This document shows positions 10,698-50,345 of a stretch of DNA of 64,000 nucleotides, piece by piece. Made by a program: the position numbers and the translations under genes. This DNA is from a virus (taxonomy: Duplodnaviria > Heunggongvirae > Uroviricota > Caudoviricetes > Ackermannviridae). Numbering within the stretch: the stretch's first letter is position 1; each line of letters begins with the position of its first letter. The notes below the pieces were generated by a model, which was given only the letters and a program-made list of their open reading frames with translations, searched no databases and was not told where the DNA came from. Location: positions 38,803 through 102,802 of IMG/VR virus record IMGVR_UViG_2974693523_000001; one strand, written 5' to 3'.

Positions 10698-10702
10698 AGA
10701 AA

Positions 10703-23591: not shown

Positions 23592-24233
23592 ATGAATATT
23601 TTTTATCTCTCACACAATGTTGAAGAATGCGCCCGCCATATGATTGACAAGCATATTGTCAAAATGCCGCTTGAGTCTATGCAGCTACTTTCAACAGCCG
23701 TTAGGCTTACTGTAGGCGTTTCTAAACCCTTTGTTGATGACACTGGCGCCACGCATTATGTTAACGTCTTAGAGGGTGAGAGAGTTCTGTTTGCGGATGT
23801 GTGCGTAGCGCATTACGCCGACGGCTCAACCAAGCGCATCACATTACGCCACGACAGCAAACTTCCCAAACATGTGATCGCACTTGATTTCATTAAGCAG
23901 AAGCCTTATTACGATCCAGAAACTCAGCGGGCGTTGGCTATAAGCCATGTCAACCATCCCTCTAATGTATGGGTTCGACAGTCTATACAGAATTTTAATT
24001 GGCTTAAGGATTTGACACTTGCAATGGAGTGTGAATGGAAGCTTAGGTATGCGCATCCAGAACACGTAAGACATAAATCAGTACAGTTGCTTGACGTAAT
24101 GCCGCAACCGATTCTAAACGATTCTGGCTTTACTCAACCGACTCCGGCGATGCCAGACAAATACAAGGTTGAAGGTGATAGCATCGCTTCTTATTGGAAT
24201 TATTACCGCGCTGAAAAATTGTTGTTGCAATAG
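23592..24233 (+). CDS. hypothetical protein (213 aa); weak resemblance to pyrimidine-dimer DNA glycosylase (DenV) N-terminus
   Basis: N-terminal LSHNVEECARHMIDKHIVKMPLES loosely resembles T4 endonuclease V's [20 protein letters not shown]. The rest is unrelated, so this is tentative. Confidence 0.3.
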   Translation: MNIFYLSHNVEECARHMIDKHIVKMPLESMQLLSTAVRLTVGVSKPFVDDTGATHYVNVLEGERVLFADVCVAHYADGSTKRITLRHDSKLPKHVIALDFIKQKPYYDPETQRALAISHVNHPSNVWVRQSIQNFNWLKDLTLAMECEWKLRYAHPEHVRHKSVQLLDVMPQPILNDSGFTQPTPAMPDKYKVEGDSIASYWNYYRAEKLLLQ

Positions 24234-24292
24234 TTGTTTTTTCAATATACTATGAATTTAACTTCTTAAGGCAAACTATAAGGAAAGCCAAA
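24225..24292 (+). promoter_or_regulatory. promoter (-35 TTGCAA, 17 bp, -10 TACTAT) plus conserved 5'UTR cassette CTTAAGGCAAAC-TAAAGGAAAGCCAAAATGAA
   Basis: The same UTR and SD block is found at 32906-32941 and 33240-33274. Confidence 0.45.
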
Positions 24293-24577
24293 ATGAACCA
24301 GTACAACAAAGCAATCATCAAAGCGGCAGTCGCTCAAGGCTATTGGTTATCAGTAGCGGATGAAGAGGGTGTTATCCTAACCCGTACCCAAAACGTCGAA
24401 GCGGTTGAGACCCACGTTGATGACGTGGATGAAGCTGTGGTGATCGTGCGCGCTAACAATGACGGCGTATTCACAAAAATCGGCTGTTTATATTTTGCTG
24501 ATAGTGAAATGTATGACTACACGGCCAATGACTTCATTGAGCGTATTGTTCAATCAGTGCAAGACACTCGTCTATAA
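24293..24577 (+). CDS. hypothetical protein (94 aa)
   Basis: ORF led by the conserved UTR cassette. Confidence 0.5.
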   Translation: MNQYNKAIIKAAVAQGYWLSVADEEGVILTRTQNVEAVETHVDDVDEAVVIVRANNDGVFTKIGCLYFADSEMYDYTANDFIERIVQSVQDTRL

Positions 24578-24588
24578 GGAGTACAGTC

Positions 24589-25062
24589 ATGGAAAAGGTA
24601 TGTGTAGCAGTTGACCACAAACACGACGATTCTAACGGCGCGTACAGCATCTTTTATATGTGGGATGGCAAGGAAGTTTCCACAGAAGGTGGTATGTACT
24701 CCGGTTTAGCTTACAATCACTATTCGGTAGACGCTTCTGAAGAACAAATCAAGGCGGCTAGTGATTACATGCGTGAAACTGCTGAAGAGGGGTATGCCTA
24801 CAACAGAAACGCAAATTGTTTTCGTGGTGATTACACTTATATTGGATGTGTTGTTAAGCTGGCGCGCTCACGCAAAGCCCCGAACAACACTGAACTAGAA
24901 GTGATTGATTATATTGATCGCTTTTACAATAAAAAGTTCCACAGTTGGGTAGAAGCTAAAATTGTTGTTCAGAATTCTGATGGCAACACATACTATGTTT
25001 CTGTGGGTTGTATTAAGGAAGTTGTGAAAGGTGTTAAGGAATTGCCTTATTGGGTGAAATAA
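24589..25062 (+). CDS. hypothetical protein (157 aa)
   Basis: ORF followed by a terminator. Confidence 0.5.
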   Translation: MEKVCVAVDHKHDDSNGAYSIFYMWDGKEVSTEGGMYSGLAYNHYSVDASEEQIKAASDYMRETAEEGYAYNRNANCFRGDYTYIGCVVKLARSRKAPNNTELEVIDYIDRFYNKKFHSWVEAKIVVQNSDGNTYYVSVGCIKEVVKGVKELPYWVK

Positions 25063-25089
25063 TAGGTCTGTTATCAGAATAAAAAAGAA

Positions 25090-25120
25090 AAGAGCGGCTA
25101 AAGCTGCTCTTTTTTGTTTG
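25090..25120. terminator. intrinsic terminator (AGAGCGGC-TAAA-GCTGCTCT + T5), A-run upstream so potentially bidirectional
   Basis: Hairpin plus TTTTTGTTT. Confidence 0.55.
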
Positions 25121-25231
25121 TTGTAATAATAGTCAGTAACTATCTGTTACCTAACTTAACCCCATTGACACAGTAGACACACTACAACCTACATTATCTG
25201 TTGCAATTTCAGTACTTGTTTTAAGACCTTC

Positions 25232-25573
25232 TTAGTAACGTGGATAAACACAAACAATGAGTTCTCTGTTAGCAGACAACCCAGATGATGTGAACTTATA
25301 CTTACCACCTACAATTCTGGTAGATGGAATTTTGGTTGATTCAGTTGTTGTGAATGGTGAACCTTCTAACGGTTCCCATGCGGTTTCTTCAAAGCAAATT
25401 TGTTTTTCAACTGATATTGTTACACCACCCGTAGAAGCGGGGACAACATGGGTTAGGGTGTCAGTTGAAGGATCGCGTTCAAATACACCCCATTCAATAT
25501 AGAGTTCAGCAATTTCTGGGTTGATTTGGATTACTTTTTCGGGGTTTGTGTTTGTTAGATAAATCTTTTGCAT
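25232..25573 (-). CDS. hypothetical protein (113 aa)
   Basis: Lone minus-strand ORF in a plus-strand block. Confidence 0.4.
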   Translation of the reverse strand: MQKIYLTNTNPEKVIQINPEIAELYIEWGVFERDPSTDTLTHVVPASTGGVTISVEKQICFEETAWEPLEGSPFTTTESTKIPSTRIVGGKYKFTSSGLSANRELIVCVYPRY

Positions 25574-25676
25574 GATATAAACCTCTTGTTACGTTTGTTC
25601 TATTTAGTGAAAAGTTTACTTCGTTGTTGATTCATGTTATGTTGATGCAAATTAATCCCAACTAGGAATTTTCAAA

Positions 25677-26657
25677 ATGTCTAAAGAAGATCTAAACAAA
25701 ATCAAAGAATCAAAACCAAGTGAGGTTACTGCGGCTCAATTACGAAGCCTCTACAACAACATTCTCACCCGAACTGATGAAGCAAACAGAACAATCGGTT
25801 CAAAAATGAAAATGATTGATTTTGATGAAACTCAAAAAGAAGTTCAAAAGGCTTACGTTACTATCTCTCGCATGTCACGAAAAGAAAGTCGTGTAGGTAG
25901 TTTTCTTTCAAAAATTTTGCCTGATGCAGCATTTAATAAACTATACGATAAAGCTGCCGAAGAGTCTGTTAACGGTAAAACGGTTTTGGAAATTTCCAAT
26001 AATCTCATTAAAAGTGTTGAAGAACGCCGTCAGCGTGTAGAAAACATTTATGGCGATCTTGTAGATTTGCACAATAGTATTGTCGCAGCTCATAAAGAAC
26101 TTAATGCAGTTATTGAAGGTATTGATGAGCATTTGGATGAATTTGATCCCGTTGAGCGAGTGAAAATGATTGCACTTAAGAGTGAAATGCTACTCACGTC
26201 ACAAGCGCACGAAGACAATATCATTACATCGAAGGGTACGATTAAGACGGCAGAAAACGCCTTAATGTTGTATTCAGGCATGATTCCAAGTATCCGCGCC
26301 CAGATCAACGATGGTCTGTCTATTCGTAGCGCACTAAAAGAGCTTGAGAACATGACAGAAATCACAGAACAAATTACTGAATTGTGTAATGCTGTGCGTG
26401 AAGATAACCGAGCTGTAATGACACAACAACTAATGACAACACTTGATAAAACAGTTATTAGTGAAAAACAAATTCAGCGGCTTGTTAGCAACCAAAATGA
26501 ACAAGCAAAACTTCACAAACAGCTATCCGAACAAATTCAACTTGTAAATAATCGTCGTGAAAACATGGTTAATAAGCTGCAACAACTTGGCGAGACATCA
26601 AAAGTAAAAACAGCATTGTTGAATAATAAGGATGTGTTTGATGGATACGGTTGCTAA
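25677..26657 (+). CDS. hypothetical coiled-coil protein (326 aa)
   Basis: ORF with AGGAAT SD. Confidence 0.5.
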   Translation: MSKEDLNKIKESKPSEVTAAQLRSLYNNILTRTDEANRTIGSKMKMIDFDETQKEVQKAYVTISRMSRKESRVGSFLSKILPDAAFNKLYDKAAEESVNGKTVLEISNNLIKSVEERRQRVENIYGDLVDLHNSIVAAHKELNAVIEGIDEHLDEFDPVERVKMIALKSEMLLTSQAHEDNIITSKGTIKTAENALMLYSGMIPSIRAQINDGLSIRSALKELENMTEITEQITELCNAVREDNRAVMTQQLMTTLDKTVISEKQIQRLVSNQNEQAKLHKQLSEQIQLVNNRRENMVNKLQQLGETSKVKTALLNNKDVFDGYGC

Positions 26658-27471
26658 CGTACGACAACAAAGAATTTCAGCAATAAAACATATTGTTCCT
26701 GAACCTACTGAATTTCAAAAAAGTTGTTTAGAACCAGCATCCTATTACAAGGATGTTTGGTTCAACTATAGACAAAATTTGAAAAATTCTTGTTACAAAC
26801 CTTCACCTAATGGTTTTGCAATGCTAGAAAAACATGAATTAGGTACATCAGGAAGACAACTTGGTGAAACATTGTACCGATTGCAAATAATCAAAATTTG
26901 TGAAGAACTGATGTGGGCAAAGTTTATTGAATCTAGTATGTTATCTTCTGTAATGGCTTTATCCATGGCGTATAAAAAACAGAATGATTCAATCTGTAAT
27001 ATTTTATTCCCTATTTCAACCAATTCAGATATTTATGGTCTTGCCAATGATTCACGTATTGATATTCTTGATGTTTATGGATTAACAAATTTTAAGAATG
27101 CAATTCACAATATTGTGAATGATAAAACAAAGGATTTAGAAAAACCTAGTAAGGAAAAATCTGAATACATTTTCAAAATGTGTGTTGGTGCGGCCAGAGC
27201 GTATGGATTTGATAATTCTGATTCTGATTTCTTTACATTAATTTCGGCTATAGGTAACATCAGAACGTCTGATGAAGAGATCTGGAAATTCTGTATCACT
27301 TACATGTTTGAAATAATCATTGGTGCGTACTTAACAATGGTAAGAGATAGAAAATGGGGTGTTTCTTATTCTTCTAAGGCTATTGTTCTAACAGATGCAG
27401 AAAACATACCTACAACACTAAGAAAATACTTTGTTGGTATTTCTTCCGAACCTTTGTTTTACTGCTCGTGA
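26632..27471 (+). CDS. hypothetical protein (279 aa)
   Basis: ORF. Confidence 0.5.
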   Translation: MCLMDTVANVRQQRISAIKHIVPEPTEFQKSCLEPASYYKDVWFNYRQNLKNSCYKPSPNGFAMLEKHELGTSGRQLGETLYRLQIIKICEELMWAKFIESSMLSSVMALSMAYKKQNDSICNILFPISTNSDIYGLANDSRIDILDVYGLTNFKNAIHNIVNDKTKDLEKPSKEKSEYIFKMCVGAARAYGFDNSDSDFFTLISAIGNIRTSDEEIWKFCITYMFEIIIGAYLTMVRDRKWGVSYSSKAIVLTDAENIPTTLRKYFVGISSEPLFYCS

Positions 27472-28037
27472 GGATTAATAAAATGGCTATTTTTAGTTCT
27501 GCAGATATGGAAGATATGAACCAAAAACAACCAAGAAGATTAAACGTTGTTGATAAGGTTGAGTTGATAGGTGTTGGCTATGAATCAATTCTAGACCTAC
27601 ACATCATTAAATCCCATACAGAGGATATGGATCGCATCCTTGGTCTCCCTAATGGCGTTGAACATATTCAAGTAAGAATAAAGGATGTTTTGTTTCAGTA
27701 TGATGAAAAACATAAAAAATTAATAGTATCACCAAGAAACTCCAACACAATGTTTTTCAATTCAAAAATTGAAGTCTATAAAGAAATTGTTTCTCTAATG
27801 GATCAGTGGATGAAATCACTAACAACCCCAGACACTGAAACCCTAATAGAAGTGGCATCACAAATTGCAAAACAATCAATTGAACAACACTTAAAAATCT
27901 TCACTCAAAGTCTTATCAAATTAACTGATACATTAGAGAAATCAAACGTTGTATTATCGGGGATGAATGATCTTGCTAAGAAAGCAGAATGCATTCGAAA
28001 AGATTTTGATTCTATAGGTTCTTTATTTAAGGATTAG
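27468..28037 (+). CDS. hypothetical protein (189 aa)
   Basis: ORF. Confidence 0.5.
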   Translation: MRINKMAIFSSADMEDMNQKQPRRLNVVDKVELIGVGYESILDLHIIKSHTEDMDRILGLPNGVEHIQVRIKDVLFQYDEKHKKLIVSPRNSNTMFFNSKIEVYKEIVSLMDQWMKSLTTPDTETLIEVASQIAKQSIEQHLKIFTQSLIKLTDTLEKSNVVLSGMNDLAKKAECIRKDFDSIGSLFKD

Positions 28038-28039
28038 TT

Positions 28040-28363
28040 ATGAATACCGCAGCTATGCTCTATATTAATCACGGTCAGGCCAGATTTATGTTGAAAAAGA
28101 AATCAATTATTAAAATCATGGCTGGTTTTAAAAATGGTGTGGATAAAAGTAAACCCGCAATTGGCATCAAGTATGAAAACTCGCATAGCGAACTACAGAT
28201 AATTTTCGATGAAGACTATACCGCCGATGTGGTTGCCAAAATTCGTGATAAGCTTGTTAAACTCACTAGAAATACTTGGTGGTCATCAACGATCAATATA
28301 GACAACTTTATTAAAGAAGTATTGGCTGAAAAACAATTACAGGAGCAATCCAATGAAAACTAA
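28040..28363 (+). CDS. hypothetical protein (107 aa)
   Basis: ORF. Confidence 0.45.
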   Translation: MNTAAMLYINHGQARFMLKKKSIIKIMAGFKNGVDKSKPAIGIKYENSHSELQIIFDEDYTADVVAKIRDKLVKLTRNTWWSSTINIDNFIKEVLAEKQLQEQSNEN

Positions 28364-28613
28364 ACTAGTGGTTTTAGGCAAACACTTTACCGAGCGTATC
28401 TATATTGATGACATTGATTATATTCAAGAAGTTTCATCTGATGCTAATGGTAAACCAAAAGTTAAGTTACAGATTCAAAACGATAGTGGTGGCGGCTATT
28501 ATGATACTTTTATTCTATTTTCGGGTGAATCTAATAAAGATGAATTTCTAAGACAAGTTCAATGTCTAATGTGTAATCCTACAGGTGCGGTGCATTATTT
28601 TGAATTGATATAA
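28353..28613 (+). CDS. hypothetical protein (86 aa)
   Basis: ORF. Confidence 0.45.
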   Translation: MKTKLVVLGKHFTERIYIDDIDYIQEVSSDANGKPKVKLQIQNDSGGGYYDTFILFSGESNKDEFLRQVQCLMCNPTGAVHYFELI

Positions 28614-28647
28614 ATCACTTGTATCTATTAGGTTTTCAGTGTAATTT

Positions 28648-28677
28648 AGCCCCATAATGATCAAAAGGGGCTTTTTT
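28648..28677 (+). terminator. intrinsic terminator (AGCCCC...GGGGCT + T6)
   Basis: 6-bp GC stem, 13-nt loop, TTTTTT. Confidence 0.55.
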
Positions 28678-29001
28678 ATGAAACTTAAACATGGTATCCC
28701 CACCACATCAAGCATGGGTGCAATGTTAGCGCGCACAGGTGTGAGTGGACGTTCATTCTTAATGTCAATTACCTACGGTCAAGAGCGCCACCGCGTAGCG
28801 GGTAAATTTAACGCGCTTATCATTCGTGATGGTAAACACTGGCAAAGTGATTTCGAAACGCTAGAGAATCGTCTGTCTGAATTAACAGAAGGTCTTCAGC
28901 TTCGTCTAGTGAACCAACCAAACGGTATGAAGCACGGGTTAGCTCTGGTTTGTAACCCGCGCTTCAATGAAGGATTTCAAAATGGAGAATCCAATGTCTA
29001 G
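28678..29001 (+). CDS. hypothetical protein (107 aa from ATG 28678)
   Basis: ORF; start placed after the terminator. Confidence 0.45.
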   Translation: MKLKHGIPTTSSMGAMLARTGVSGRSFLMSITYGQERHRVAGKFNALIIRDGKHWQSDFETLENRLSELTEGLQLRLVNQPNGMKHGLALVCNPRFNEGFQNGESNV

Positions 29002-29920
29002 TCTTGTTAATAAAATTGTTGGTTTATTTTATGAAAAACCATCAACCCATTATATTGAACACACTATGGAAACTCATCTTAGTGTGAGTGTTAGTGAAAC
29101 TATCAAAACCCAAATGCAAAAGGGTCGTGATAAGGGTTATCACTCTTGGTGGCATAACCAACGTTGCACTAAAGAAGATCTTCATCTATCACTCCAGAAT
29201 GCTGTAGACCGCGGTGATTATTCAACCGCTATGATCTTTTCAGCTATGTTAGAGTTCCGTGCCAAACACGAACTGGAACAGGTTGTTGTAAACCCGTTTG
29301 AAATTCTTTCGCAAACAAAATTTGTTCTTAACCGATTGCGCGTAAACATGTATTCGGATAATTTAGAATATCTTCAGCATGTATATGAAGCTTATATCCT
29401 TAATCAAGATTCAATGATTAGTGATGATTTTGTTATGGATAATGGTGAAACAACCTTTGCTGATATGCTTGTGACTAAACTTATTGAGAACAAACTATTA
29501 GCAAAGCCGTATCATATCATTTTTGTTGGGGTTCCACATACCGCAAATGATCTAACACTTACGGGTAATTGGGATGTTATTCCTCAAGGTGAAGTCTATC
29601 CAGTTGAAGAAGATCGGATGATAATTGATCATTCAGGTATTGAATATCATATTGATGATTCTATTTCAACATTTATCTTCCAAAAATCTACAGAAGGTGC
29701 AAATGTTGTTTTGGGTGGTCATAATCTACCTTACTTTATTGATGTTCTGTGTGATGATGGTAGAAAGAATGATCTGTACCTAGTGTACACTGGTGACACT
29801 AACGACCGTGAAAGTGTTTTCAATAAAAATAAATATGTCTTTATGGGAAAACACAAATTAACAGAAACAAAAAACAAATATTCTTTCCGAGGTGAACCAT
29901 GTCAAGCAGTATTTCTATAA
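28994..29920 (+). CDS. hypothetical protein (308 aa)
   Basis: ATG 28994 with GGAGA SD; 8-nt overlap with the upstream gene. Confidence 0.5.
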   Translation: MSSLVNKIVGLFYEKPSTHYIEHTMETHLSVSVSETIKTQMQKGRDKGYHSWWHNQRCTKEDLHLSLQNAVDRGDYSTAMIFSAMLEFRAKHELEQVVVNPFEILSQTKFVLNRLRVNMYSDNLEYLQHVYEAYILNQDSMISDDFVMDNGETTFADMLVTKLIENKLLAKPYHIIFVGVPHTANDLTLTGNWDVIPQGEVYPVEEDRMIIDHSGIEYHIDDSISTFIFQKSTEGANVVLGGHNLPYFIDVLCDDGRKNDLYLVYTGDTNDRESVFNKNKYVFMGKHKLTETKNKYSFRGEPCQAVFL

Positions 29921-30762
29921 ACACTGAAAAGAAACTAGAAAAGTTTCTTAAATCATATCATAAAGGCGTTGATGCCGAGGGTATGGTAAAAGCTCTTTCA
30001 GACGATGTTGTCTCAATTGAGTTTGTAATTGGCGATCCTATTCTAGCGGGATATTTGACGGCTACGAAGAACACCGTACCTCAACTACCCCAACGGAATC
30101 TAACAATTTCCATCAAACCATCTAGTAACGTTACCGCGACTTACGGTTACGTGAAGAATGGCGCTTGTGGTCAATTCAGAAACGTTTTCAAACTATACGA
30201 AAACTATTTTGGTCCTAGCAATACATTTTTTGTTCTTAAAATGACGAATGAACAAACTGTAGAAGTGCCTGCAATAATGTTTATGAATTATCTGTTAGGT
30301 ATTGTATGGAATGAGACTGTCAACAACTTTCTTGTGTCGAAGTTAGTTTATCAATCAAGAAATATCTTTAGTCGTTATTCATCAATGCTTGCTGGTTATA
30401 TCATTTGTTTGTTCTTTAAAAATTTACCAGCAGAAACATTTGTTTTTGGTTTAAGAAAAGTTGAATACAAAAATCAAAACGTATTGGGTAGTTTCGAACT
30501 GTATGTTACATCATATAATAGAACTGATGTATTCACACACGAAAAATATCTTAAGAATTTTTCTGATAATACATGTCTGTTAGTTGATGTTGGTTCAGGT
30601 AGTTTCTTTGTCAATGTAACCCGTGACAATGTAAACAACGCTATTTTTGGTGTTAATATTGACAAACACGGGTTTACTGAGGATTTCTATTTTTCTTTGT
30701 CTGATTATACAGATAATAAAAATGACATCCTTAATGAAGTACGTAATTCATTTAGTTTTTAG
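29899..30762 (+). CDS. hypothetical protein (287 aa)
   Basis: ORF. Confidence 0.5.
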   Translation: MSSSISINTEKKLEKFLKSYHKGVDAEGMVKALSDDVVSIEFVIGDPILAGYLTATKNTVPQLPQRNLTISIKPSSNVTATYGYVKNGACGQFRNVFKLYENYFGPSNTFFVLKMTNEQTVEVPAIMFMNYLLGIVWNETVNNFLVSKLVYQSRNIFSRYSSMLAGYIICLFFKNLPAETFVFGLRKVEYKNQNVLGSFELYVTSYNRTDVFTHEKYLKNFSDNTCLLVDVGSGSFFVNVTRDNVNNAIFGVNIDKHGFTEDFYFSLSDYTDNKNDILNEVRNSFSF

Positions 30763-30773
30763 AGGGATGTGAC

Positions 30774-31127
30774 ATGGCGGTTGCTATTGGTGTTCTTATT
30801 TTTGTAATTGTGTCTATTATTATATCACTTACACTAGCCAGATTTATGGCTACTGTTAAGCGTGATACAAAGTTATTGATCGGTCTTATTGACTTAAAAT
30901 TTGATGATCCAGAAGTCAAAAATGTAATTGTTTTTTCTAAACAAAATTCTATGTCTGGTAGATTTATTGTGGAGGAACTTGGTGAAGTAGGTATTCCCGT
31001 TGAGGATTACTTTCTAACTGATACATCCATAAGAACAGATATAGAAGAACATGTTAGTAAACTTGGTTATAAAATTCATTTTGAATTTGACGGAAAGTTT
31101 TTAGATCATCTACGAATTTATAAATAG
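30774..31127 (+). CDS. hypothetical membrane-anchored protein (117 aa)
   Basis: N-terminal TM helix. Confidence 0.45.
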   Translation: MAVAIGVLIFVIVSIIISLTLARFMATVKRDTKLLIGLIDLKFDDPEVKNVIVFSKQNSMSGRFIVEELGEVGIPVEDYFLTDTSIRTDIEEHVSKLGYKIHFEFDGKFLDHLRIYK

Positions 31128-31205
31128 TTTTTTCATTAAGTTTTATTGAAGTAAATTATTCTTGAACTGCCCAAGTGGGCTTCCAACAACAAACGGAGTT
31201 ACACA

Positions 31206-32849
31206 ATGTTCTCTTTAATTTTAACGATTTTGTTCATCGGTCTGGCGGTGGTAGTACCGTTCCTAGCACCGAACAAGTTTGCCAAGGTTGGCGCTGCTGT
31301 AGGCTTCGGTCTACTAGCCTTTGTTACTATGGCAATGACATCAGTTATTTCAATTCAAAAAGATCACATTGGTTTGAAGTATCGTTCTATTTTGGCTACT
31401 AACCTTCCAGCTGGGCGCATTATGATGCCCCGTGATGAAGAAGGCACCATTTACAAAGGTCCCCAACCAGATTGGTTCACCGAGGGTACGTACTTTATCC
31501 CATTTGTGAACGTGTTCTTCGATATTAAAGAAGTTCCAAAGGTTGAAGTTCCACCTAACCATTATCTGAAACTTGTTGCCCGTGACGGTAAAGATCTACC
31601 GAAGGGTGAAACAATGGCTCCCGAGTGGACTGGTTCATTTGAAGACATGCTTAGCCCAACTTCATTCCTGAACGGCGGTGGCTACAAAGGTTCTCAGCTG
31701 ACAGTTCTACCCCCTGGAAAATACGCCATCAATACGGATTTTTGGGTGGTTTCTCTAGGCAAGGCAACTGAAATCGAAACTGGTCAAGTGGGTGTTGTGC
31801 GCTCAAATGTGGCAAGCGGTCGTGTTGAGTGTCCTAAAGTAACCCAAACAGGTTCGGCACAAATTCAAGCAACGCTAGTCCCTCGTGGTTGCCGTGGTGT
31901 ATGGGCTGAGTCTCTAGAGCCTAACAAGTATTACCTACACGATGACGCCTACAAAGTAACGATCATGTCTACACGCGCTACTTCATGGGTCTATGCAGGC
32001 GGATACAAACGTCGTACTATTTCTCTAACAGTGGGAAATGATGGTTCTATTATTCAAGAACCAGATACAACGGCAGTTGGTTATGAGCCATCTAAACACG
32101 CTGGTCAAGCAGTTATCGCTAAAACTAACGATGGTCAAGAAGTACCAATCGAAATCCGTTTGCAAGCGCAAGTTCAGGCTAATAGCGCTTCGCGGGTGGT
32201 TGCTGGTGTGGGTGATTTAACTGCGGTTGAAGATCGTGTGGTTGCGCCTATTGTTAATGACATTGTGAGACAGATTGCAGCAACGGAAACCGCTTTGAAT
32301 TTGATGTCTAAACGCCAAACAATCATTGAAGCTCTTGAAAAAGCTGTTATTCCAGAAGCTGCTAAAGCGGGTGTGACAGTGACTGAAGTGCGTATCGATG
32401 ACATTGTTATTCCACCAGAAGTAACGCTCCCACAACGTCGTACCACACTAGCGACAAGTTTGGCAGCAACTTACAAACAAGAGAAAGCAGCCGCTGAAGC
32501 GCGTAAAGATTCAGAGAATGCTATTGCAGTAGCTAACCAACAAGGCACGATCGTTGCTGCACAAATGGCTCGTGACGCTGCCAAGCTGTACGGTGAAGGT
32601 GAGCGTGATCGTCTGGTCGCGGTTGCCGCAGGTCAGAAAGCTCAACTGGATGTTATTGGTCGTGAGAAAACAGTGGAACTACAAATGTTTGAGCGCTTGA
32701 TGCAAGCTGTTGAGAAGAACCCAAGTATTATCAAGGTTCCGGTCATTAGTGTGCAAGGTGGCAACGGTGGTTCATTGGAAGGTGCGGCGGCTGTGCTTGG
32801 TGCAAGCAGCAACATCGGTCAGTTCATCGGTAACACCAGTTCAAAATAA
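31206..32849 (+). CDS. SPFH/band-7 (flotillin/HflK-like) membrane protein, 547 aa
   Basis: Two N-terminal TM helices, then a prohibitin-like core (IQKDHIGLKYRS...) and a long Ala/Gln/Glu-rich C-terminal coiled coil. Architecture typical of SPFH proteins. Confidence 0.5.
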   Translation: MFSLILTILFIGLAVVVPFLAPNKFAKVGAAVGFGLLAFVTMAMTSVISIQKDHIGLKYRSILATNLPAGRIMMPRDEEGTIYKGPQPDWFTEGTYFIPFVNVFFDIKEVPKVEVPPNHYLKLVARDGKDLPKGETMAPEWTGSFEDMLSPTSFLNGGGYKGSQLTVLPPGKYAINTDFWVVSLGKATEIETGQVGVVRSNVASGRVECPKVTQTGSAQIQATLVPRGCRGVWAESLEPNKYYLHDDAYKVTIMSTRATSWVYAGGYKRRTISLTVGNDGSIIQEPDTTAVGYEPSKHAGQAVIAKTNDGQEVPIEIRLQAQVQANSASRVVAGVGDLTAVEDRVVAPIVNDIVRQIAATETALNLMSKRQTIIEALEKAVIPEAAKAGVTVTEVRIDDIVIPPEVTLPQRRTTLATSLAATYKQEKAAAEARKDSENAIAVANQQGTIVAAQMARDAAKLYGEGERDRLVAVAAGQKAQLDVIGREKTVELQMFERLMQAVEKNPSIIKVPVISVQGGNGGSLEGAAAVLGASSNIGQFIGNTSSK

Positions 32850-32863
32850 TTCTAAAATTATTT

Positions 32864-32941
32864 TTCAAAAGGGGCTTGCAAAGGCCTCTTTTTCATTTTA
32901 TAGTGAACTCAACTTAAGGCAAACACTAAAGGAAAGCCAAA
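32864..32941 (+). promoter_or_regulatory. terminator-promoter-UTR cassette (hairpin AAAAGGGGCTTGCAAAGGCCTCTTTTT; -35 TTGCAA inside the hairpin, -10 TATAGT; conserved UTR)
   Basis: Own inspection. The same module recurs upstream of 33275 and 34842. Confidence 0.5.
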
Positions 32942-33184
32942 ATGAAAGTACAAGAAGCACACAAAAACAATTTTATTAATATTGTTAATAAGGGTTATCT
33001 ACTTTGTGTAACAGATAGCATGGGTAAAACATTACTTAAACCCACAAACATCGTAGATTCTGTTATTATTGTTGTTGAAAATAATAGATATTCAGACGTT
33101 TGGGCATACGATCCTAATAGAACGGGACAACGTTCAAAATATAAACATTTAAATCAGTATGTGACATCAATTCAAAGTAGTTAA
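32942..33184 (+). CDS. hypothetical protein (80 aa)
   Basis: ORF behind the cassette. Confidence 0.45.
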   Translation: MKVQEAHKNNFINIVNKGYLLCVTDSMGKTLLKPTNIVDSVIIVVENNRYSDVWAYDPNRTGQRSKYKHLNQYVTSIQSS

Positions 33185-33196
33185 TAAAATTATTTT

Positions 33197-33274
33197 TCAA
33201 AAGGGGGCTTTTCAAAGTCCCTTTTTCGTTTTATTATGATCTAAACTTAAGGCAAACACTAAAGGAAAGCCAAA
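33197..33274 (+). promoter_or_regulatory. second copy of the terminator-promoter-UTR cassette (-10 TATTAT)
   Basis: Sequence similarity to 32864-32941. Confidence 0.45.
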
Positions 33275-33481
33275 ATGAACGCTCTAGAAATTGCTAATGA
33301 AGTCCTAACTGAAATGAACGTAATCATTCCTGTTGAACTTGTTAACGCTGCGGGCTTTACCAACTTGAAAGAGATGGTGATGCACAACGCAACAACCCGC
33401 CGTCTTTTTGTTGGAATGTTTGTTGAACGCTGTGGTTCAAATGATGCTGCTATTGAACTTCTACAAAGCTGGAGCGCGTAA
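33275..33481 (+). CDS. hypothetical protein (68 aa)
   Basis: ORF behind the cassette. Confidence 0.45.
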   Translation: MNALEIANEVLTEMNVIIPVELVNAAGFTNLKEMVMHNATTRRLFVGMFVERCGSNDAAIELLQSWSA

Positions 33482-33672
33482 TGGAATACATTGTACAAGG
33501 AAGTTTTGAAACTATCCTATTGGTGGATGGTTTGGCCATTAATCTGATAACCGGAGAGATATGTGATGTTAATGTGGATTCTGGACACTCTACTCATGTT
33601 TGCAGCACTGTTCTGTGTGCTTGCTGTGGTAGTAGTGATAATGCGGATAACGTTCTGCTATCGCGGGATTAA
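33481..33672 (+). CDS. hypothetical Cys-rich small protein (63 aa)
   Basis: ORF; conflicts with the overlapping 33566 ORF, and only one is likely real over 33563-33672. Confidence 0.25.
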   Translation: MEYIVQGSFETILLVDGLAINLITGEICDVNVDSGHSTHVCSTVLCACCGSSDNADNVLLSRD

Positions 33673-33823
33673 GCGCATAAAACGCATGATTGCGCGCAAT
33701 GGCGTTCCTGATTTATGTTGCTGTGGTGATATTCGTGATAATCACGGGTGGGGTACAGGTCATGCATTTGTAAGTCAGGATGATTACTTTTTTCAAAATG
33801 CTTCTAAACATTACAGAGTGTAG
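33566..33823 (+). CDS. small membrane protein (TM helix plus Cys-rich cytoplasmic tail)
   Basis: ATG 33566; strongly hydrophobic helix LMFAALFCVLAVVVVIM. Confidence 0.35.
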   Translation: MLMWILDTLLMFAALFCVLAVVVVIMRITFCYRGIKRIKRMIARNGVPDLCCCGDIRDNHGWGTGHAFVSQDDYFFQNASKHYRV

Positions 33824-33831
33824 TTAATATC

Positions 33832-34029
33832 ATGGATAATGAAATTCTATTTTGGTTACAAATTCTTTACTATGGGGTAAGTGGTGGCTTAGTCTTTCTG
33901 ATATTTCTAGCCTTTCGTAATGTCGTAAGGAAAAAGGATATGCGTTCTTTCGTTCTTTTTCTGGCAATGTTAGCAATTTATATCAATATGGTGTTGCTCA
34001 CTCACAAAGTCTCAGGGGGTGCGTTGTGA
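33832..34029 (+). CDS. small membrane protein (65 aa, two TM helices)
   Basis: ORF, hydrophobic. Confidence 0.4.
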   Translation: MDNEILFWLQILYYGVSGGLVFLIFLAFRNVVRKKDMRSFVLFLAMLAIYINMVLLTHKVSGGAL

Positions 34030-34278
34030 GAGACTGGAGCATCAAAAGAAAGGTGATGGCGGTGATTGGCGTCTCCGCCTATTTGTTTATGGTAGGTCAT
34101 ATGTTCTATCAATACATTGGGTGAAATATGGAAGACTTGAAAATTGTTATACAGGGTTTGAAGTATTGGAAGTGTTGGAAGTGTTGGAAGGATTTGACAT
34201 GGCGCGGTCGCGTTGGATTAGTTACCCTAACGTCAATAGTCTTGGCCCAGGTTGTGATCGTGGTGTCGGTGGTGTACT

Positions 34279-34578
34279 ATGGCTCAAACCTCTAATATAA
34301 AACGTCTGTCCTGTCATAAAGTAAAAGGTAACCCCTATTACCTACTGACTATAATCCACAACGGTGGTGAGCTAGGGTATTACCTAGAGGAGCATATGGT
34401 CAAGGAATTTGGTTTAACCCATTCGGTGGACGCGCTTTTGAACCTTATGGGTGGGCTTTCTTTTATCACAGAAAATCTACCTAGAGAAGAAGTTGAGAAG
34501 TGTGAAATGGAATTAGACTTACTGACGCAAGCTAGGGAATTTATTGGTTCTAAGCGAGTTTTAGAGAGGACTTTTTAA
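34279..34578 (+). CDS. hypothetical protein (99 aa)
   Basis: ORF. Confidence 0.4.
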   Translation: MAQTSNIKRLSCHKVKGNPYYLLTIIHNGGELGYYLEEHMVKEFGLTHSVDALLNLMGGLSFITENLPREEVEKCEMELDLLTQAREFIGSKRVLERTF

Positions 34579-34761
34579 ATGGTTGTTGCTATAGCGTTTC
34601 TTCTTCTTTATGTTTCTGCTCTATTTTATGTAGCGGGTGTAATAAATAACAATATTCTGTTGGGTTTAGTTGCTGTTCTTGTTGGTTTATTGGACGTTTG
34701 GTTTGTGTTGGACCCAGAGTTCTTTGGCTTTGTGATACCTGTGGAAACTATTTGTAATTAA
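34579..34761 (+). CDS. small membrane protein (60 aa, two TM helices)
   Basis: ORF, hydrophobic. Confidence 0.4.
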   Translation: MVVAIAFLLLYVSALFYVAGVINNNILLGLVAVLVGLLDVWFVLDPEFFGFVIPVETICN

Positions 34762-34764
34762 TTT

Positions 34765-34803
34765 TGAAAGGGGCTTGCATTAGCCTCTTTTTCATTTTAA
34801 TAT
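34765..34803 (+). promoter_or_regulatory. third copy of the terminator hairpin plus promoter (-35 TTGCAT, 17 bp, -10 TAATAT)
   Basis: Similarity to 32864-32904. Confidence 0.45.
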
Positions 34804-34841
34804 GACCTCATCAAGTAAACATTTGGCCTCAGGAGGCTACC

Positions 34842-35207
34842 ATGAAAACTAGAATTCTACTCACCGTAATGGCATCAGCAATTTCTTTCAACGCTTTTTC
34901 TGCTTCTGGTACTCAAGTCGAGCCACGTATGATCCCAGAATTCGCGGGTTATATCGACGGTATTGCGCATCTATGTCCGGAAAATGAAGAAATTCTTCGT
35001 ATCCAAGAGAAGTCGTTTTTGGCTGGTATCACGCGTGATTACCGCGAGGGCTCAGTACAAGAGCGCGTATATAACACTAACTTCAAAACAACTTCAGAAT
35101 CCAAGTTCATTACTTGTGAAGAATTTGTGAAGTATCTTGACAAACAAGAGAAAATTCTAGACAAGTTCATTGAAAAGTACACTATGTTCAACACTGCAAA
35201 ACGATAG
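34842..35207 (+). CDS. secreted/periplasmic protein with signal peptide (121 aa)
   Basis: MKTRILLTVMASAISFNAFSASG has a signal peptide with an AXA-like site; GGAGG SD. Confidence 0.5.
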   Translation: MKTRILLTVMASAISFNAFSASGTQVEPRMIPEFAGYIDGIAHLCPENEEILRIQEKSFLAGITRDYREGSVQERVYNTNFKTTSESKFITCEEFVKYLDKQEKILDKFIEKYTMFNTAKR

Positions 35208-37766: not shown

Positions 37767-38444
37767 ATGTCATACGAATTAACTGATTTCGATAAAATTG
37801 AATTAGAAGATTCCTTTATTACTTACCAAATATGGGAGGGAATACGCTCTCATTTTGCATATGATAAATATAATTGGGAAGATTACGGCCCAAAATCAAA
37901 CCTGAAATTTGAAAATTATATGAATCATAAACATAGGATGCACTTCCTAAAACTTCATAGACGTTTCAAAGGTAAGCGTGGTGAATTAACTGCTCATATT
38001 GCCGCTAATTTTATGGTTAATCCAAAATTCTTCATAATGTCAGCTTTGTCAAAAGAAGCTTTTAAAAATGCTCTTGAATATAACGCAATATTTGAAGACT
38101 TTGAGTTAAACTTTAGACAGTGGGTTATGGTTAATATTCCTGTTATCATGCAAGAGCATAATGTTACCAGCTTTATGGAGCTGATTAGAGTAAAGGAATA
38201 TGATGAGCCTTGGCTTTTATCAGCTATTAGTAATAACGATGTACCAGAGTGGTTTGCTGTCGGTTTAGACTTGATGATCAACTACCGAGTTAGATACAAT
38301 GAAGCATACAGTGAACATTTTGTATGGCAGGGTAATAGTAAGCGCATTTCAAAACTTTTACCTTGGTTCCCGTTTAATGATGCAGAAATAAATTCGTTGC
38401 GAGTTTGGCTAACAAAATTCCTAAAAGAAAAGGGGCTTAATTAA
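37767..38444 (+). CDS. hypothetical protein (225 aa)
   Basis: ORF from ATG 37767. Confidence 0.5.
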   Translation: MSYELTDFDKIELEDSFITYQIWEGIRSHFAYDKYNWEDYGPKSNLKFENYMNHKHRMHFLKLHRRFKGKRGELTAHIAANFMVNPKFFIMSALSKEAFKNALEYNAIFEDFELNFRQWVMVNIPVIMQEHNVTSFMELIRVKEYDEPWLLSAISNNDVPEWFAVGLDLMINYRVRYNEAYSEHFVWQGNSKRISKLLPWFPFNDAEINSLRVWLTKFLKEKGLN

Positions 38445-38458
38445 GCCCCTGTTTTTAT
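38427..38458. terminator. bidirectional intrinsic terminator (AAAAGGGGCTTAATTAAGCCCCTGTTTTT) between convergent genes
   Basis: Perfect 8-bp stem flanked by A- and T-runs. Confidence 0.65.
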
Positions 38459-40164
38459 TATGGTAGGACCAATGCTCTTTGTGGTCCTCCAAAATCACTG
38501 TCTGAATAATCAACAGTGTATATTTTATCGTTATTATAGTTGTGCTGGACGTTGCTAGAGTTACTTGAGTTTTGTTGTATTATGGGTGAATTAGTTGGGT
38601 TAGGTGTAGAATCAAACACTGACATCTTTTCAGTGTTCTCTTTATCCCTGTCTATTAAATTTTGCATCATGCGTTTTTGTGCTGCTTCCATTTGTGCGTC
38701 AAAACGCTCTAATTCTTCTGGTGTTGCTGTATCAAGTTCTATTGGATCAATACCAGTATCTGGGTCAGTTTCTCTTAAACTACTTCTATATCCACCAACT
38801 TGACGGAGCATTGTTTCTTTCCCAGGAGTCCAATCTGGTAGCCAATCTACTAAATCCATTATTTTACCAAGCATGTCATCAAACATACCTATAAAAAAGT
38901 TGTTTAATACATCACCTACAGTGGCAATTTTTTCATGTAATGCATCCAAAGCGGCTTGTTTTACCACTGACATTCTTTCTTCAGCTTTTTCTACCAAGTT
39001 CATATTTGCCACAGTGTTAACAGCATCACGGATCATTCCCTTAACGTTTTCATATATAATTCCTGGGATGTCAACAAGATCAGTACCTAAACCTATACCG
39101 TCAAATGCTTGACCAAGATACCCAGTAATGTGATTAAGAATATCAACTGGGTATTGGAGTATATTTCTTGTGATTGTTCTTATTGTTTCACCTACATTGG
39201 TTTCAAAACCAAGTAAGTCGGCACCAAGATCAAACAGATCACCAACACTTCCTAATAGTTGCATTGCACCAGCTTGAAGACGCTCGGCAATGGTTACGTC
39301 AGTTTTACCTAAAATTTCTTTAGCGTCAAAGAAACCCATACCAAATTCAATTACAACCGCAGCAAGAGCAAGTGGTCCAACCTTTAAGAAATTCAATGCT
39401 TTCTTTAACATAGGTACAACCGCGCCGAAAGCCAACATTGATGCCAATGCACCGCTCATACCACCAAGTACAGACGACATTAAATTATCCAACATGCCTT
39501 TCTTTTCTTCTATTTCTTTTGGCATTGTTGTACTTGATGTTGATTCAAATTCTGGATTGTTTTCAGTTTGTTGTAAGCTAAGAAGATCAGCTTCTGCTTG
39601 ACGCTGTAATTCAGCTTCAACCATCAACTGTCTCTGTTCCTGTAACTCTTTAAGAATAGGATTGTCAACATCCCAAACGCGCAAAAGTTCATAAAGAACA
39701 TCTAATTGACGATTATTAACATCCAAAATTTTATCAGAATAATCATTGCTCTCGCGCTGTAATTCCTGAGATGTATCATTTTCTATCTCAGGTTCTGAAA
39801 CTTGTTTTAATGTTTCTAATTCTTTTCGAAGTAATTCAATTTGCTCGTTTCTATCCTTGGATGCATCAGCATCAATTTTTTCCCTATACGCTTGCTGTTT
39901 CTCATAAATTGAGCGCAACGCTGCAAACATAGGGCTTGCTGAAGTAGCTGCCGCGATCATTGCACCCGTATTTGGTTTCAACGATGCCATGAGCGTTCTA
40001 GACACATCCTTAAATGTGCTATTAATCTGTTCATTGATGCTTGCGCCTTGTTTAGCAAATTCATCAATATTTTTTGAAATTCTAGAGATGTCGTCAGACG
40101 TAACGTCACGGCCTTTAGCCTTAGCGACGCGCATTTCATCAAGAATTTTAGAAATGTCAGCCAT
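38458..40164 (-). CDS. coiled-coil/Gly-hydrophobic-rich 568-aa protein, tape-measure-like (T4 gp29-size) candidate
   Basis: Long coiled-coil N-terminus, central Gly/Ala/Met-rich hydrophobic block (LGGMSGALASMLAFGAVVPMLKKALNFLKVGPLALAAVVIEFGMGFF). Size is close to T4 gp29 (590 aa). Last gene of a 4-gene minus-strand operon. Confidence 0.35.
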   Translation of the reverse strand: MADISKILDEMRVAKAKGRDVTSDDISRISKNIDEFAKQGASINEQINSTFKDVSRTLMASLKPNTGAMIAAATSASPMFAALRSIYEKQQAYREKIDADASKDRNEQIELLRKELETLKQVSEPEIENDTSQELQRESNDYSDKILDVNNRQLDVLYELLRVWDVDNPILKELQEQRQLMVEAELQRQAEADLLSLQQTENNPEFESTSSTTMPKEIEEKKGMLDNLMSSVLGGMSGALASMLAFGAVVPMLKKALNFLKVGPLALAAVVIEFGMGFFDAKEILGKTDVTIAERLQAGAMQLLGSVGDLFDLGADLLGFETNVGETIRTITRNILQYPVDILNHITGYLGQAFDGIGLGTDLVDIPGIIYENVKGMIRDAVNTVANMNLVEKAEERMSVVKQAALDALHEKIATVGDVLNNFFIGMFDDMLGKIMDLVDWLPDWTPGKETMLRQVGGYRSSLRETDPDTGIDPIELDTATPEELERFDAQMEAAQKRMMQNLIDRDKENTEKMSVFDSTPNPTNSPIIQQNSSNSSNVQHNYNNDKIYTVDYSDSDFGGPQRALVLP

Positions 40165-43516: not shown

Positions 43517-44558
43517 CTTCATTAAAGCGGGTTTCAGCAACAATCCCCTTGAAAATGTTATTCCTTATGATGTTAAGAACTTCTTTAATACCCCTATTTT
43601 TTACCATGTCATTTATATCTTTTTCATACACGTTCTCAGGGAAGAGAACTACACGTTTATTAGCTTCTATAATTTTTGAAATACCCCGACACACTTCACT
43701 ATTTCTATACTGATTATCAGGTATGTAAATATCACCGTCAAATTTTAATAGATTGGCGTCAGCAGTTGCCACACAATTAGGAATAAACAAACTATCAATT
43801 GGACCTTCAACAACCAACTTAGGTTTTGAAAAATCCAATCTTTCTAACCCAAAAGTTTTTTCAGTGTTTTTTGTCTTTTTACAAGTTAGATAGCGAAGTT
43901 TTGCATCAGCTTGAAATGAACGTCCCTGAATAACTTGGATCTTACCTGTGGTCCCATAAAACGGTATAACTAGACGTGGTTCATCATTGATTAATTTCTT
44001 TACTGGTTCTGTTTCCTCTGGATCAAAAGATTCACAAGTCTTTTTCCAGTCATTTGTAAACCAGAACAAATCAATTGCAAAATTAGGTAAGTTACGACCT
44101 ATTACATATTTCTTAGCGTAATGATCGTCAGGTAAATCCTTTAATCTAACCATTGTTTCAAATACAGGATCTGTTACTGTTTGTGTTGGTTTAAACAAAG
44201 GCATTGGTCTAGCTTTTATAGCTTTAGCCCTTTGCTCTTCTTGTTCTATTTGATCAATGGTTTTTCTTTGTCGTTGACCATCAGCTGACTGTTTAAATTG
44301 CTCAAAGAAATACTCGTCAGCTAATAAATTATTAACGTTTCTTAAGAACGTCCCCATTCTTGCATTACGCAATACATCACAGTTATGGCAATAGTAATGA
44401 TAAGCATCAGTTTCATTTCTATAAATCAAATAACCACGGCGCTTCTTAGTATCATTACAAAATGGACATGAAAAACGGGCGAGACCTCCACGCTCCCACC
44501 CGAATCTTTCCAAATTTCCTGCGACTCTCTGAATAAAGTCTTCGTCAACTTCCCGCAT
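43503..44558 (-). CDS. DNA primase (T4 gp61-like; zinc ribbon plus TOPRIM)
   Basis: CPFCNDTKKRRGYLIY...YHYYCHNC zinc ribbon as in gp61; central acidic TOPRIM-like region. Confidence 0.5.
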   Translation of the reverse strand: MREVDEDFIQRVAGNLERFGWERGGLARFSCPFCNDTKKRRGYLIYRNETDAYHYYCHNCDVLRNARMGTFLRNVNNLLADEYFFEQFKQSADGQRQRKTIDQIEQEEQRAKAIKARPMPLFKPTQTVTDPVFETMVRLKDLPDDHYAKKYVIGRNLPNFAIDLFWFTNDWKKTCESFDPEETEPVKKLINDEPRLVIPFYGTTGKIQVIQGRSFQADAKLRYLTCKKTKNTEKTFGLERLDFSKPKLVVEGPIDSLFIPNCVATADANLLKFDGDIYIPDNQYRNSEVCRGISKIIEANKRVVLFPENVYEKDINDMVKNRGIKEVLNIIRNNIFKGIVAETRFNEVKKC

Positions 44559-45305: not shown

Positions 45306-45312
45306 TTGCTAT

Positions 45313-45447
45313 CCTTAAACTTCATGTCGGTCATAAAACAAAGAAGTTGTTTAAAGAAGTTGTTTGTGGGAGAACACTATGTTCTCCCTAAACTTCGTGT
45401 CGGTCAAAAACAAAGAAGTTGTTTAAAGAAGTTGTTTAAAGAAGTTG
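45313..45447. repeat. iteron-like region: two ~55-bp direct repeats (45313-45366, 45388-45447) each holding 2-3 tandem 13/14-mers AGAAGTTGTTTAA, separated by an 8-bp-stem palindrome GGGAGAAC-ACTAT-GTTCTCCC
   Basis: Own inspection of the intergenic sequence. Confidence 0.8.
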
Positions 45448-45450
45448 CGT

Positions 45451-47243: not shown

Positions 47244-47291
47244 TTGGCTTTCCTTATAGTTTGCCGTTGAACTAAGAGGGATACTAAAGTG

Positions 47292-47320
47292 AAAAAGGGG
47301 CTAATGCAAGCCCCTTTTTG
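47292..47320. terminator. bidirectional intrinsic terminator (AAAAAGGGGCTAATGCAAGCCCCTTTTT)
   Basis: Perfect 7-bp stem flanked by A5 and T5. Confidence 0.65.
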
Positions 47321-47324
47321 AAAA

Positions 47325-48038: not shown

Positions 48039-48060
48039 GTTAGTACCTATTAACCAAAAG

Positions 48061-50272: not shown

Positions 50273-50317
50273 GAGATTTTCCTATTAAAGTTTATCAAAC
50301 CTAACCACAATAAAGTG

Positions 50318-50345
50318 AAAAAGGGGTTTTGTAAACCCCTTTTTG
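50318..50345. terminator. bidirectional intrinsic terminator (AAAAAGGGGTTTTGTAAACCCCTTTTT)
   Basis: Hairpin flanked by A- and T-runs; near-copy of the 47292 terminator. Confidence 0.6.

Follow-up and report, generated by a model that had tools for sequence, protein, structure and literature searches.

Among described phage elements, the closest to those analyzed here are the PeSLs of T4-type phages, which consist of an AT-rich region, a stem-loop (often GGGG...CCCC), a sigma-70 promoter, a Shine-Dalgarno sequence and a start codon (PMC2839356, PMC4122927). In the phages RB49/phi1, T4/PST and KVP40/nt-1 they cluster in variable regions beside orphan genes (Arbiol et al. 2010, PMC2839356; Comeau et al. 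2014, PMC4122927). For the PeSLs of RB49, promoter and terminator activity is proven, recombination between copies gives rise to mini-circles, and crossovers have been mapped between the -10 and the ATG (PMC2839356). Here, we analyze a repeated terminator-promoter-leader cassette in a 64,000-nt stretch of viral DNA (the window), which is 100% identical to positions 38803-102802 of the record of Vibrio phage vB_VchM_Kuja (MN718199.1), such that a window position equals the record position minus 38802. Kuja has a genome of 148,180 bp, belongs to the genus Kujavirus of the Ackermannviridae, and infects Vibrio cholerae O1 El Tor. We consider it likely that the Kuja elements are PeSL-type cassettes by which orphan genes are insulated, expressed and probably shuffled, and this would extend these plug-and-play cassettes beyond the T4-like phages to an Ackermannviridae phage of V. 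cholerae.

At the level of sequence and context, Kuja displays the features that characterize PeSLs: a composite of promoter and stem-loop, an AT-rich lead-in, a Shine-Dalgarno sequence with a start codon, dispersed copies, and a location in variable regions. The parts and their order match, including the GGGG...CCCC stem-loop and the 17-nt spacer, and there are many copies, situated in the gaps of clusters of small orphan genes. The Kuja consensus is almost exactly that of the vibriophages nt-1 and KVP40, A3-4G3-loop-C3T3-4 and TTGYVH-N17-TAWWAT (PMC4122927). The stem-loop overlaps the promoter, as in RB49, and conservation peaks between the -10 and the ATG, the interval to which the PeSL crossovers were mapped. 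The Kuja cassettes differ in that: (i) they occur in the Ackermannviridae, whereas PeSLs have been described in T4-like (Straboviridae) phages; (ii) the -35 sits at the hairpin apex, and terminator and promoter share every base; and (iii) a fixed leader of 30 nt is repeated word for word in three to four copies. The restriction to Straboviridae reflects where PeSLs were found and is not a property of the element; our literature search found no description of PeSL-like elements in Ackermannviridae or in Kuja. The initial annotation of this DNA had proposed a portable cassette that points to modular gene shuffling, an idea already published in the form of PeSLs (PMC2839356, PMC4122927). What is new here, and in our view useful rather than surprising, is the occurrence in another phage family, the complete overlap of terminator and promoter, the invariance of the leader and an unannotated homolog of RegA.

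The cassette is about 95 nt long and occupies the entire intergenic gap. It carries a conserved AT-rich lead-in (AAAATTATTTTTCAAAA) and runs in the order A-tract, GC hairpin, T-tract, -10, A-rich 5' untranslated region with an AAGGA ribosome-binding site, and AUG. The -35 is formed by the last two bases of the ascending arm together with the loop, and the descending arm plus the T-tract make up the 17-nt spacer; the initial annotation had misplaced the -35 in the descending arm. The hairpins have folding energies of -13.1 to -16.7 kcal/mol (z -3.2 to -5.1), and 90.7% of cells are paired across the nine copies as compared with 35.5-79.6% in slid registers, with compensatory changes at two pairs, 12-27 (GC/AU/GU) and 15-24 (CG/UA). 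The promoter has a TTGCAA-like -35 and a TAnTAT -10, separated by 17 nt in 9/9 copies, and the invariant alignment columns include the TT of the -35 as well as the A and the final T of the -10, the latter two being key contact positions for sigma-70. The leader, by contrast with the hairpin, is unstructured as judged by a folding energy of -2.8 kcal/mol (z 0.16 to 0.55 versus shuffled sequence), and its AAGGA stands 8 nt before the AUG.

In copies aligned on the AUG, similarity starts about 12-20 nt ahead of the stem, directly past the upstream stop codon, and stops at the AUG. By mean pairwise identity, the hairpin reaches 0.82, the spacer with the -10 0.77, the leader at least 0.76 and the AT-rich lead-in 0.70, as compared with 0.34 for sequence lying further upstream and 0.36 for the coding part; stretches of 29-45 nt with perfect or near-perfect identity are common to copies. 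A leader string of 34 nt is identical at window positions 32913-32946 and 33246-33279 (0 matches in 100 shuffles), while the copy at 24265-24297 departs from it by two substitutions and a 1-nt deletion. Thus, the near-identical leader that the initial annotation had reported at three loci is real, two of the copies being identical, but the deletion in the third had escaped notice, and the ranges given began about 7 nt early and ended at the ATG. The leaders of Kuja_0360, Kuja_1020 and Kuja_1030 are identical at 29/29 positions, whereas their promoters and hairpins agree at 66-81% of positions (Fisher p 9e-5 to 9e-3). Promoter subtypes and leader variants are paired in mosaic fashion across the copies.

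The entire Kuja genome was analyzed, and copies beyond the window are therefore counted too. Using nhmmer we found nine full hairpin-promoter copies, five of them in the window (E 3e-13 to 1e-6), at record positions 19059(+), 29765(-), 34968(-), 71662(+), 71996(+), 73565(+), 86083(-), 89110(-) and 121100(+). The leader is present in seven copies, four in the window (E 6e-12 to 5e-6), preceding Kuja_0160, 0360, 0890, 1020, 1030, 1230 and 1640. The copies are spread over both strands from 19 kb to 121 kb of the record (about 100 kb), and every one is intergenic and oriented like its downstream gene. Three module combinations are found: hairpin, promoter and shared leader (n=5); hairpin and promoter with another leader (n=4); and promoter and shared leader without the hairpin (n=2). 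In the flagged span the small genes stand in long same-strand runs and are annotated as hypothetical. Window copies, with the genes that they precede, are as follows.

24225-24253, plus strand: promoter-only copy, with -35 TTGCAA (24225-24230), 17-nt spacer and -10 TACTAT (24248-24253); no hairpin; overlaps the stop codon of Kuja_0880.
24259-24295, plus strand: leader variant 2 (..CTTAAGGCAAACTATAAGGAAAGCCAAA), ending in the AUG of Kuja_0890 (24293-24295); nhmmer E 2.9e-10.
24293-24577, plus strand: cargo gene Kuja_0890, 94 aa, an orphan with no homolog in phage VPALA.
32854-32904, plus strand: cassette before Kuja_1020, with AT-rich lead-in and hairpin at 32867-32892 (-13.8 kcal/mol); E 7e-13.
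32876-32904, plus strand: promoter of the Kuja_1020 cassette, with -35 TTGCAA (32876-32881) at the hairpin apex, 17 nt, and -10 TATAGT (32899-32904).
32906-32944, plus strand: leader variant 1 of Kuja_1020, with the 34-nt string at 32913-32946 and AUG at 32942-32944; E 7.6e-12; -2.8 kcal/mol.
32942-33184, plus strand: cargo gene Kuja_1020, 80 aa, an orphan.
33187-33237, plus strand: cassette before Kuja_1030, with hairpin at 33199-33226 (-13.7 kcal/mol), -35 TTTTCA (33209-33214), 17 nt, and -10 TATTAT (33232-33237); E 1.2e-10.
33239-33277, plus strand: leader variant 1 of Kuja_1030, with the identical string at 33246-33279 and AUG at 33275-33277; E 6.3e-12.
33275-34761, plus strand: cargo block behind the Kuja_1030 cassette, comprising Kuja_1030, 1040, 1050, three unannotated small open reading frames, Kuja_1060 and 1070; none has a VPALA homolog.
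34753-34844, plus strand: cassette before Kuja_1080, with hairpin at 34766-34791 (-13.1 kcal/mol), -35 TTGCAT (34775-34780), 17 nt, and -10 TAATAT (34798-34803); E 6.8e-12. The Kuja_1080 leader (plus strand) differs from the shared one and has an AGGAGG ribosome-binding site, with the AUG at 34842.
47241-47325, minus strand: complete cassette before Kuja_1230, with hairpin at 47292-47319 (-16.7 kcal/mol), -35 TTGCAT (47304-47309) and -10 TAGTAT (47281-47286); E 2.8e-13.
47236-47277, minus strand: profile match to leader variant 2 (GGCAAACTATAAGGAAAGCCAA) of Kuja_1230, with AUG at 47241-47243; E 9.8e-9.
50270-50350, minus strand: hairpin and promoter before Kuja_1270 (profile match 50308-50347), with hairpin at 50318-50344 (-13.8 kcal/mol); E 1.2e-6.
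50270-50335, minus strand: promoter and start of Kuja_1270, with -35 TTTACA (50330-50335), -10 TATTGT (50307-50312), an unrelated leader, and AUG at 50270-50272.

The three hairpin-promoter loci of the initial annotation (32867-32904, 33199-33237 and 34766-34803) and its promoter-only locus at 24225-24253 are thus present with the 17-nt spacing that it had given. The -35 boxes TTGCAA and TTGCAT are as it had read them at 32876-32881 and 34775-34780, but not in the second copy, which has TTTTCA (33209-33214). Its loci were real but too few, as the window copies on the minus strand at 47281-47325, with a leader at 47236-47277, and at 50308-50347 had been overlooked; the further genomic copies that it had advised searching for exist, as the nhmmer counts show. 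The gene Kuja_1020 is bracketed by two direct cassette copies 333 bp apart, which share 103 nt at 80% identity with a perfect block of about 40 nt. Separately, the convergent genes Kuja_1130 (+) and Kuja_1140 (-) have between them a perfectly symmetric hairpin, AAAAGGGGCTTAATTAAGCCCCT (window 38428-38462), which is related to the cassette stem but consists of the hairpin only, and for which terminator calls are obtained on both strands.

Other terminators in Kuja have unrelated stems, for example GCCACCGTATGGTGGC, GGGCTATTAATAGCCC and GACCACATAAGTGGTC, and therefore terminator function alone does not dictate GGGGCTTGCA. As judged from these comparisons, the cassette copies are homologous and not just functional look-alikes. 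The leader pattern GGCAAAC-N3-5-AAGGAAAGCCAAA, searched for as an exact string, gave 0 matches in IMG/VR viral contigs, 13 matches in GTDB genomes, none of them in Vibrio, and 22 single matches in metagenomes, which lay mostly inside unrelated coding sequence and none on Kuja-like contigs as judged by tblastn. Since these scans of viral, metagenome and genome collections return chance-level matches only, the leader is not derived from the host and not present in another sequenced phage.

The genes behind the cassettes are small and, with few exceptions, without relatives. The 11 downstream proteins are 35-245 aa long (median 94, versus 176 genome-wide), and a PHROGs search assigned no function to any of them. 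They were described initially as unrelated to each other, which is essentially right; the exception is a weak likeness between Kuja_0890 and Kuja_1020 (36% over 44 aa; E 7e-4 pairwise, 0.01 within the set), which may be distant paralogs. Paralogy of the cargo as the source of the leader similarity was ruled out, as only this pair is weakly alike and the similarity stops at the AUG. The 455-nt unannotated gap between Kuja_1050 and Kuja_1060 is filled by three small open reading frames (window 33832-34295, plus strand), each start overlapping or abutting the preceding stop. They encode 65 aa with two hydrophobic segments (33832-34029), 32 aa (34026-34124) and 55 aa with a hydrophobic C-terminus (34128-34295), probably unannotated small membrane proteins. 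The Kuja_1230 cassette borders a paralog block specific to Kuja, and Kuja_1270 is itself a member of a local paralog array. This tandem array of five paralogs, located among Kuja_1240 to Kuja_1290 (window about 47325-51451, minus strand), encodes proteins of about 240-255 aa with 27-33% mutual identity, is not found in VPALA, has a shared 36-nt motif every 720-1140 nt, and contains one cassette.

To what extent the cassettes mark sites of gene gain can be judged by comparison with related phages. Close siblings of Kuja are absent from the collections searched, where the only high-identity match is Kuja itself; the nearest relatives are the Vibrio phages VPALA and SUMAE, at about 67% nucleotide identity in conserved genes, and one distant IMG/VR contig was recovered using Kuja_0900 and none using the SPFH gene. 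VPALA shares synteny with Kuja, with amino-acid identities of about 40-85%, and 103/186 Kuja genes have a homolog there. The remaining 83/186 include 10/11 of the cassette-driven genes (hypergeometric p 0.0016). The enrichment also holds when only the 76 genes preceded by a gap of 40 nt or more are considered, 27 of which are without a VPALA homolog (p 7e-5).

Two syntenic sites are informative. First, in Kuja the SPFH gene (Kuja_1010) is separated from Kuja_1120 by about 3.1 kb of orphan genes with three cassettes, whereas the corresponding slot of VPALA holds one 63-aa orphan gene between two direct repeats of a hairpin with GTTTAC (-35), the first of which is followed by TATAGT and the leader GACACTAAAGGAATTCCAAAATG, recognizably related to that of Kuja. 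Second, VPALA has a promoter and leader, TTGTAA-N17-TACAAT...CAACTTTTAGAGACAAACCAAAAAGGAAAGTCTAATCATG, immediately ahead of its Kuja_0900 ortholog, which they drive; Kuja has the orthologous promoter and leader, but with Kuja_0890 placed between them and Kuja_0900, and the genes that flank Kuja_0890 are adjacent in VPALA. Because the VPALA leader abuts the Kuja_0900 ortholog, Kuja_0890 is a one-gene insertion exactly at the junction of leader and AUG. The Kuja cassette and leader models match VPALA weakly, with a leader E value of 0.21 at the syntenic site, and as judged by these profile searches the exact cassette family is specific to Kuja. Conservation of the leader in siblings, which the initial annotation had made a test of its proposal, holds in part: leader-like sequences occur at two syntenic sites in VPALA and only at those two, there being no close sibling in the collections. 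Its suggestion of modular shuffling fares better, supported by the spread over both strands, the 10/11 orphans relative to VPALA, the Kuja_0890 insertion and the repeat-flanked orphan of VPALA.

Based on these observations, we propose that each cassette turns the small orphan genes behind it, from one to several in number, into an insulated, self-contained expression unit. The A-tract, GC-rich hairpin and T-tract would end transcription from upstream, as suggested by sequence and folding energy. A sigma-70-type promoter would be built into the terminator bases, with its -35 at the apex, its spacer in the arm and T-tract, and a TAnTAT -10, as the pattern of conservation indicates. In seven copies the transcript would then carry a near-invariant, unstructured, A-rich 5' untranslated region with AAGGA 8 nt before the AUG. 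The identity shared by copies would provide homology patches for T4-type recombination, by which gene modules could be inserted, deleted or swapped at cassette boundaries, and repeated exchanges would also hold the leader homogeneous. Kuja possesses a T4-type set of replication and recombination genes. The boundary-shuffling step is suggested by the comparison with VPALA.

Several points weigh against this proposal. The activity of RB49 PeSLs and their mini-circles are experimental, whereas the promoter and terminator activity of the Kuja elements is predicted from sequence and folding. A generic sigma-70 scan of the region yielded no promoter excess (59 found versus 58.4 expected), and was dropped as evidence because it is without discriminating power there. 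VPALA is the only usable relative and is distant, such that a missing homolog may reflect divergence rather than insertion or deletion, and recent events cannot be dated from the comparison. The resemblance of the hairpin-promoter part to an Enterococcus phage element, described below, could be accounted for in part by convergent optimization. Homogenization through recombination alone leaves unexplained that the leader shows greater uniformity than the adjoining promoter. Finally, Kuja encodes a sigma-70-family protein, Kuja_1500 (685 aa; record 111444-113501, minus strand), with region 2 at E 5e-8, a borderline region 4 and helix-turn-helix domains, and an ortholog in VPALA. The promoters therefore need not be early promoters for the host sigma-70, and Kuja_1500 could read them.

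A different, though compatible, explanation for the uniformity of the leader is that it is the RNA operator of a RegA-family protein that would bind just 5' of and over the AUG and shut off the early orphan genes together; this gives the common translational regulator suggested by the initial annotation a concrete candidate. T4 RegA represses translation of about 30 early mRNAs (review, PMC3014915), and the regA gene lies after the clamp-loader genes in T4-related genomes (PMC3014915). In Kuja, the gene Kuja_0080 (record 10349-11008, plus strand), annotated as hypothetical, lies directly after the gp44/gp62 clamp-loader genes, in the canonical post-gene-62 position, and belongs to the RegA family as judged by Pfam Translat_reg PF01818 (E 3e-18; 66 bits versus a cutoff of 25) and by the T4 RegA structure 1REG (E 7e-17); a T4 RegA sequence also matched the open reading frame, at 10349-11005, and the Pfam and PDB 1REG searches confirmed the match. 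RegA sites are unstructured and overlap or abut the AUG (PMC3014915), and the Kuja leader is likewise single-stranded and adjoins the AUG. Its 29/29 identity in three copies, set against 66-81% in the promoter and hairpin, also fits an operator, as does VPALA, in which no RegA homolog was found and the leader-like sites are two and diverged, although this contrast is a single comparison. However, the T4 targets show no clear sequence conservation, and the consensus obtained by in vitro selection (SELEX), AAAAUUGUUAUGUAA (PMC3014915), is unlike the leader, as are the selected sites of T4 and RB69. Moreover, Kuja_0080 is a protein of 219 aa with a basic, Arg/Asn/Gly-rich C-terminal tail, in which R21 and W81 are conserved but the RNA-contact residues K14, T18 and F106 are replaced, and four cassette copies have other leaders. 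We therefore consider an operator function of the leader possible but unlikely. Equally tentative is the fuller version, in which the seven early orphan genes form a regulon with a shared operator for a divergent Kuja_0080, reuse of the leader is more than a by-product of recombination, and the leader of VPALA has decayed. If the regulon exists, any gene that recombines behind the leader would automatically join a common translational shut-off. The unannotated RegA homolog and the defined RNA sequence form a testable pair.

It is improbable that the cassettes are neither mobile nor shuffled, but represent the best signals for the host machinery, whose likeness goes back to convergent selection or to a small number of old duplications nearby. 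One argument for this comes from Saphexavirus phages of Enterococcus (105 Enterococcus phage records), which carry AAAAAGGGGCTTGACGAGGCCTCTTTTTTGTGTTATAGT, an element that aligns with the Kuja cassette over about 80 nt at 75.6% identity. In the example of EF_CW (PP063009.2, 33796-33877), a terminator hairpin has TTGACG at its apex, followed by a T-tract spacer and a TATAGT -10. The compact overlapped design is built from nearly the same bases as in Kuja, with AAAAAGGGGCTTGAC in stem and loop, but in unrelated phages with a Gram-positive host and with another downstream leader; the resemblance is most likely convergent, and the similarity of hairpin and promoter may therefore partly represent a convergent optimum. 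Ribosome-binding sites of the AAGGAAA type are, furthermore, common among Kuja genes. Convergence nevertheless gives no account of the 5' half of the leader (CTTAAGGCAAACAC), which is no known signal and yet is identical in copies on opposite strands up to about 37 kb apart (Kuja_0360 on the minus strand versus Kuja_1020 and Kuja_1030), with a copy lacking only the first bases of CTTAAGGCAAACAC another 16 kb away. The unrelated stems of the other Kuja terminators, the strong tie of the copies to genes missing from VPALA, and the insertion of Kuja_0890 exactly at the leader/AUG junction also speak against it.

Less probable still is a role of the conserved +1 to +30 stretch as DNA, either as an operator for a phage transcription factor or as a recognition element for the sigma-like protein of the phage. 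The conserved block does start near the predicted transcription start, the stretch GAAyTyAAC after the -10 is semi-conserved, also in a distant metagenomic relative, and Kuja_1500 offers a candidate reader with its sigma-70 regions 2 and 4 and helix-turn-helix domains. The leader, however, is without dyad symmetry or internal repeats beyond CTTAAG, and conservation that extends exactly up to the AUG is a better fit to a feature of the mRNA.

A small-RNA target, as suggested by the initial annotation, or a structured riboregulator is hardly credible, as only the strong conservation of the 5' untranslated region favors it, whereas the leader folds no better than shuffled sequence, by which a structured RNA was rejected, matches zero Rfam families at E <=1, and has cores in the genome that are all sense and ahead of genes, with no antisense copy among them. 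A permissive Rfam search of window 22000-52000 gave no relevant match; a sub-threshold match to RSV_RNA at 43763-43910 (+), with 27 bits versus a gathering score of 105 (E 2.9e-4), is almost certainly due to chance.

Similar solutions exist elsewhere in the family. Vibrio phage 207E48.1 (MW824375.1, 1-50000), a member of the Ackermannviridae with regA, has its own repeated early cassette in minus-strand intergenic regions, with a hairpin, TTTTAAGAAAA...TTGCGC-N17-GAGTATAATGG, and a start context, GGATATCAYYATG, common to at least six genes. Together with the Enterococcus design, this suggests that overlapped terminator-promoter cassettes are a common means for large lytic phages to keep orphan genes insulated and to exchange them. 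The Kuja genome is poorly annotated, and the cassette flags likely early transcription units and sites of gene gain in it; as a terminator-promoter of 45 nt joined to an unstructured leader, the cassette also offers a compact part for synthetic expression.

Two further observations concern other regulatory sequences of Kuja. In record positions of about 124700-142470, structural genes are preceded by CTATATAT-type motifs that resemble T4 late promoters, several of which directly follow a GGGGCTTG...CCCC hairpin (e.g., AAAACGGGGCTTGCAAGCCCCGTTTTGCTATATATG, ahead of the neck gene), forming composites of terminator and late promoter. Upstream of Kuja_1200 (window 45305-45451, minus strand, and also 45117-45147 and 47007-47029), there are five direct AAACAACTTCTTT repeats and two TGACCGACAYGAAGTTTA repeats around a GGGAGAACATAGTGTTCTCCC hairpin; these are iteron-like and may constitute an origin or an array of regulator-binding sites.

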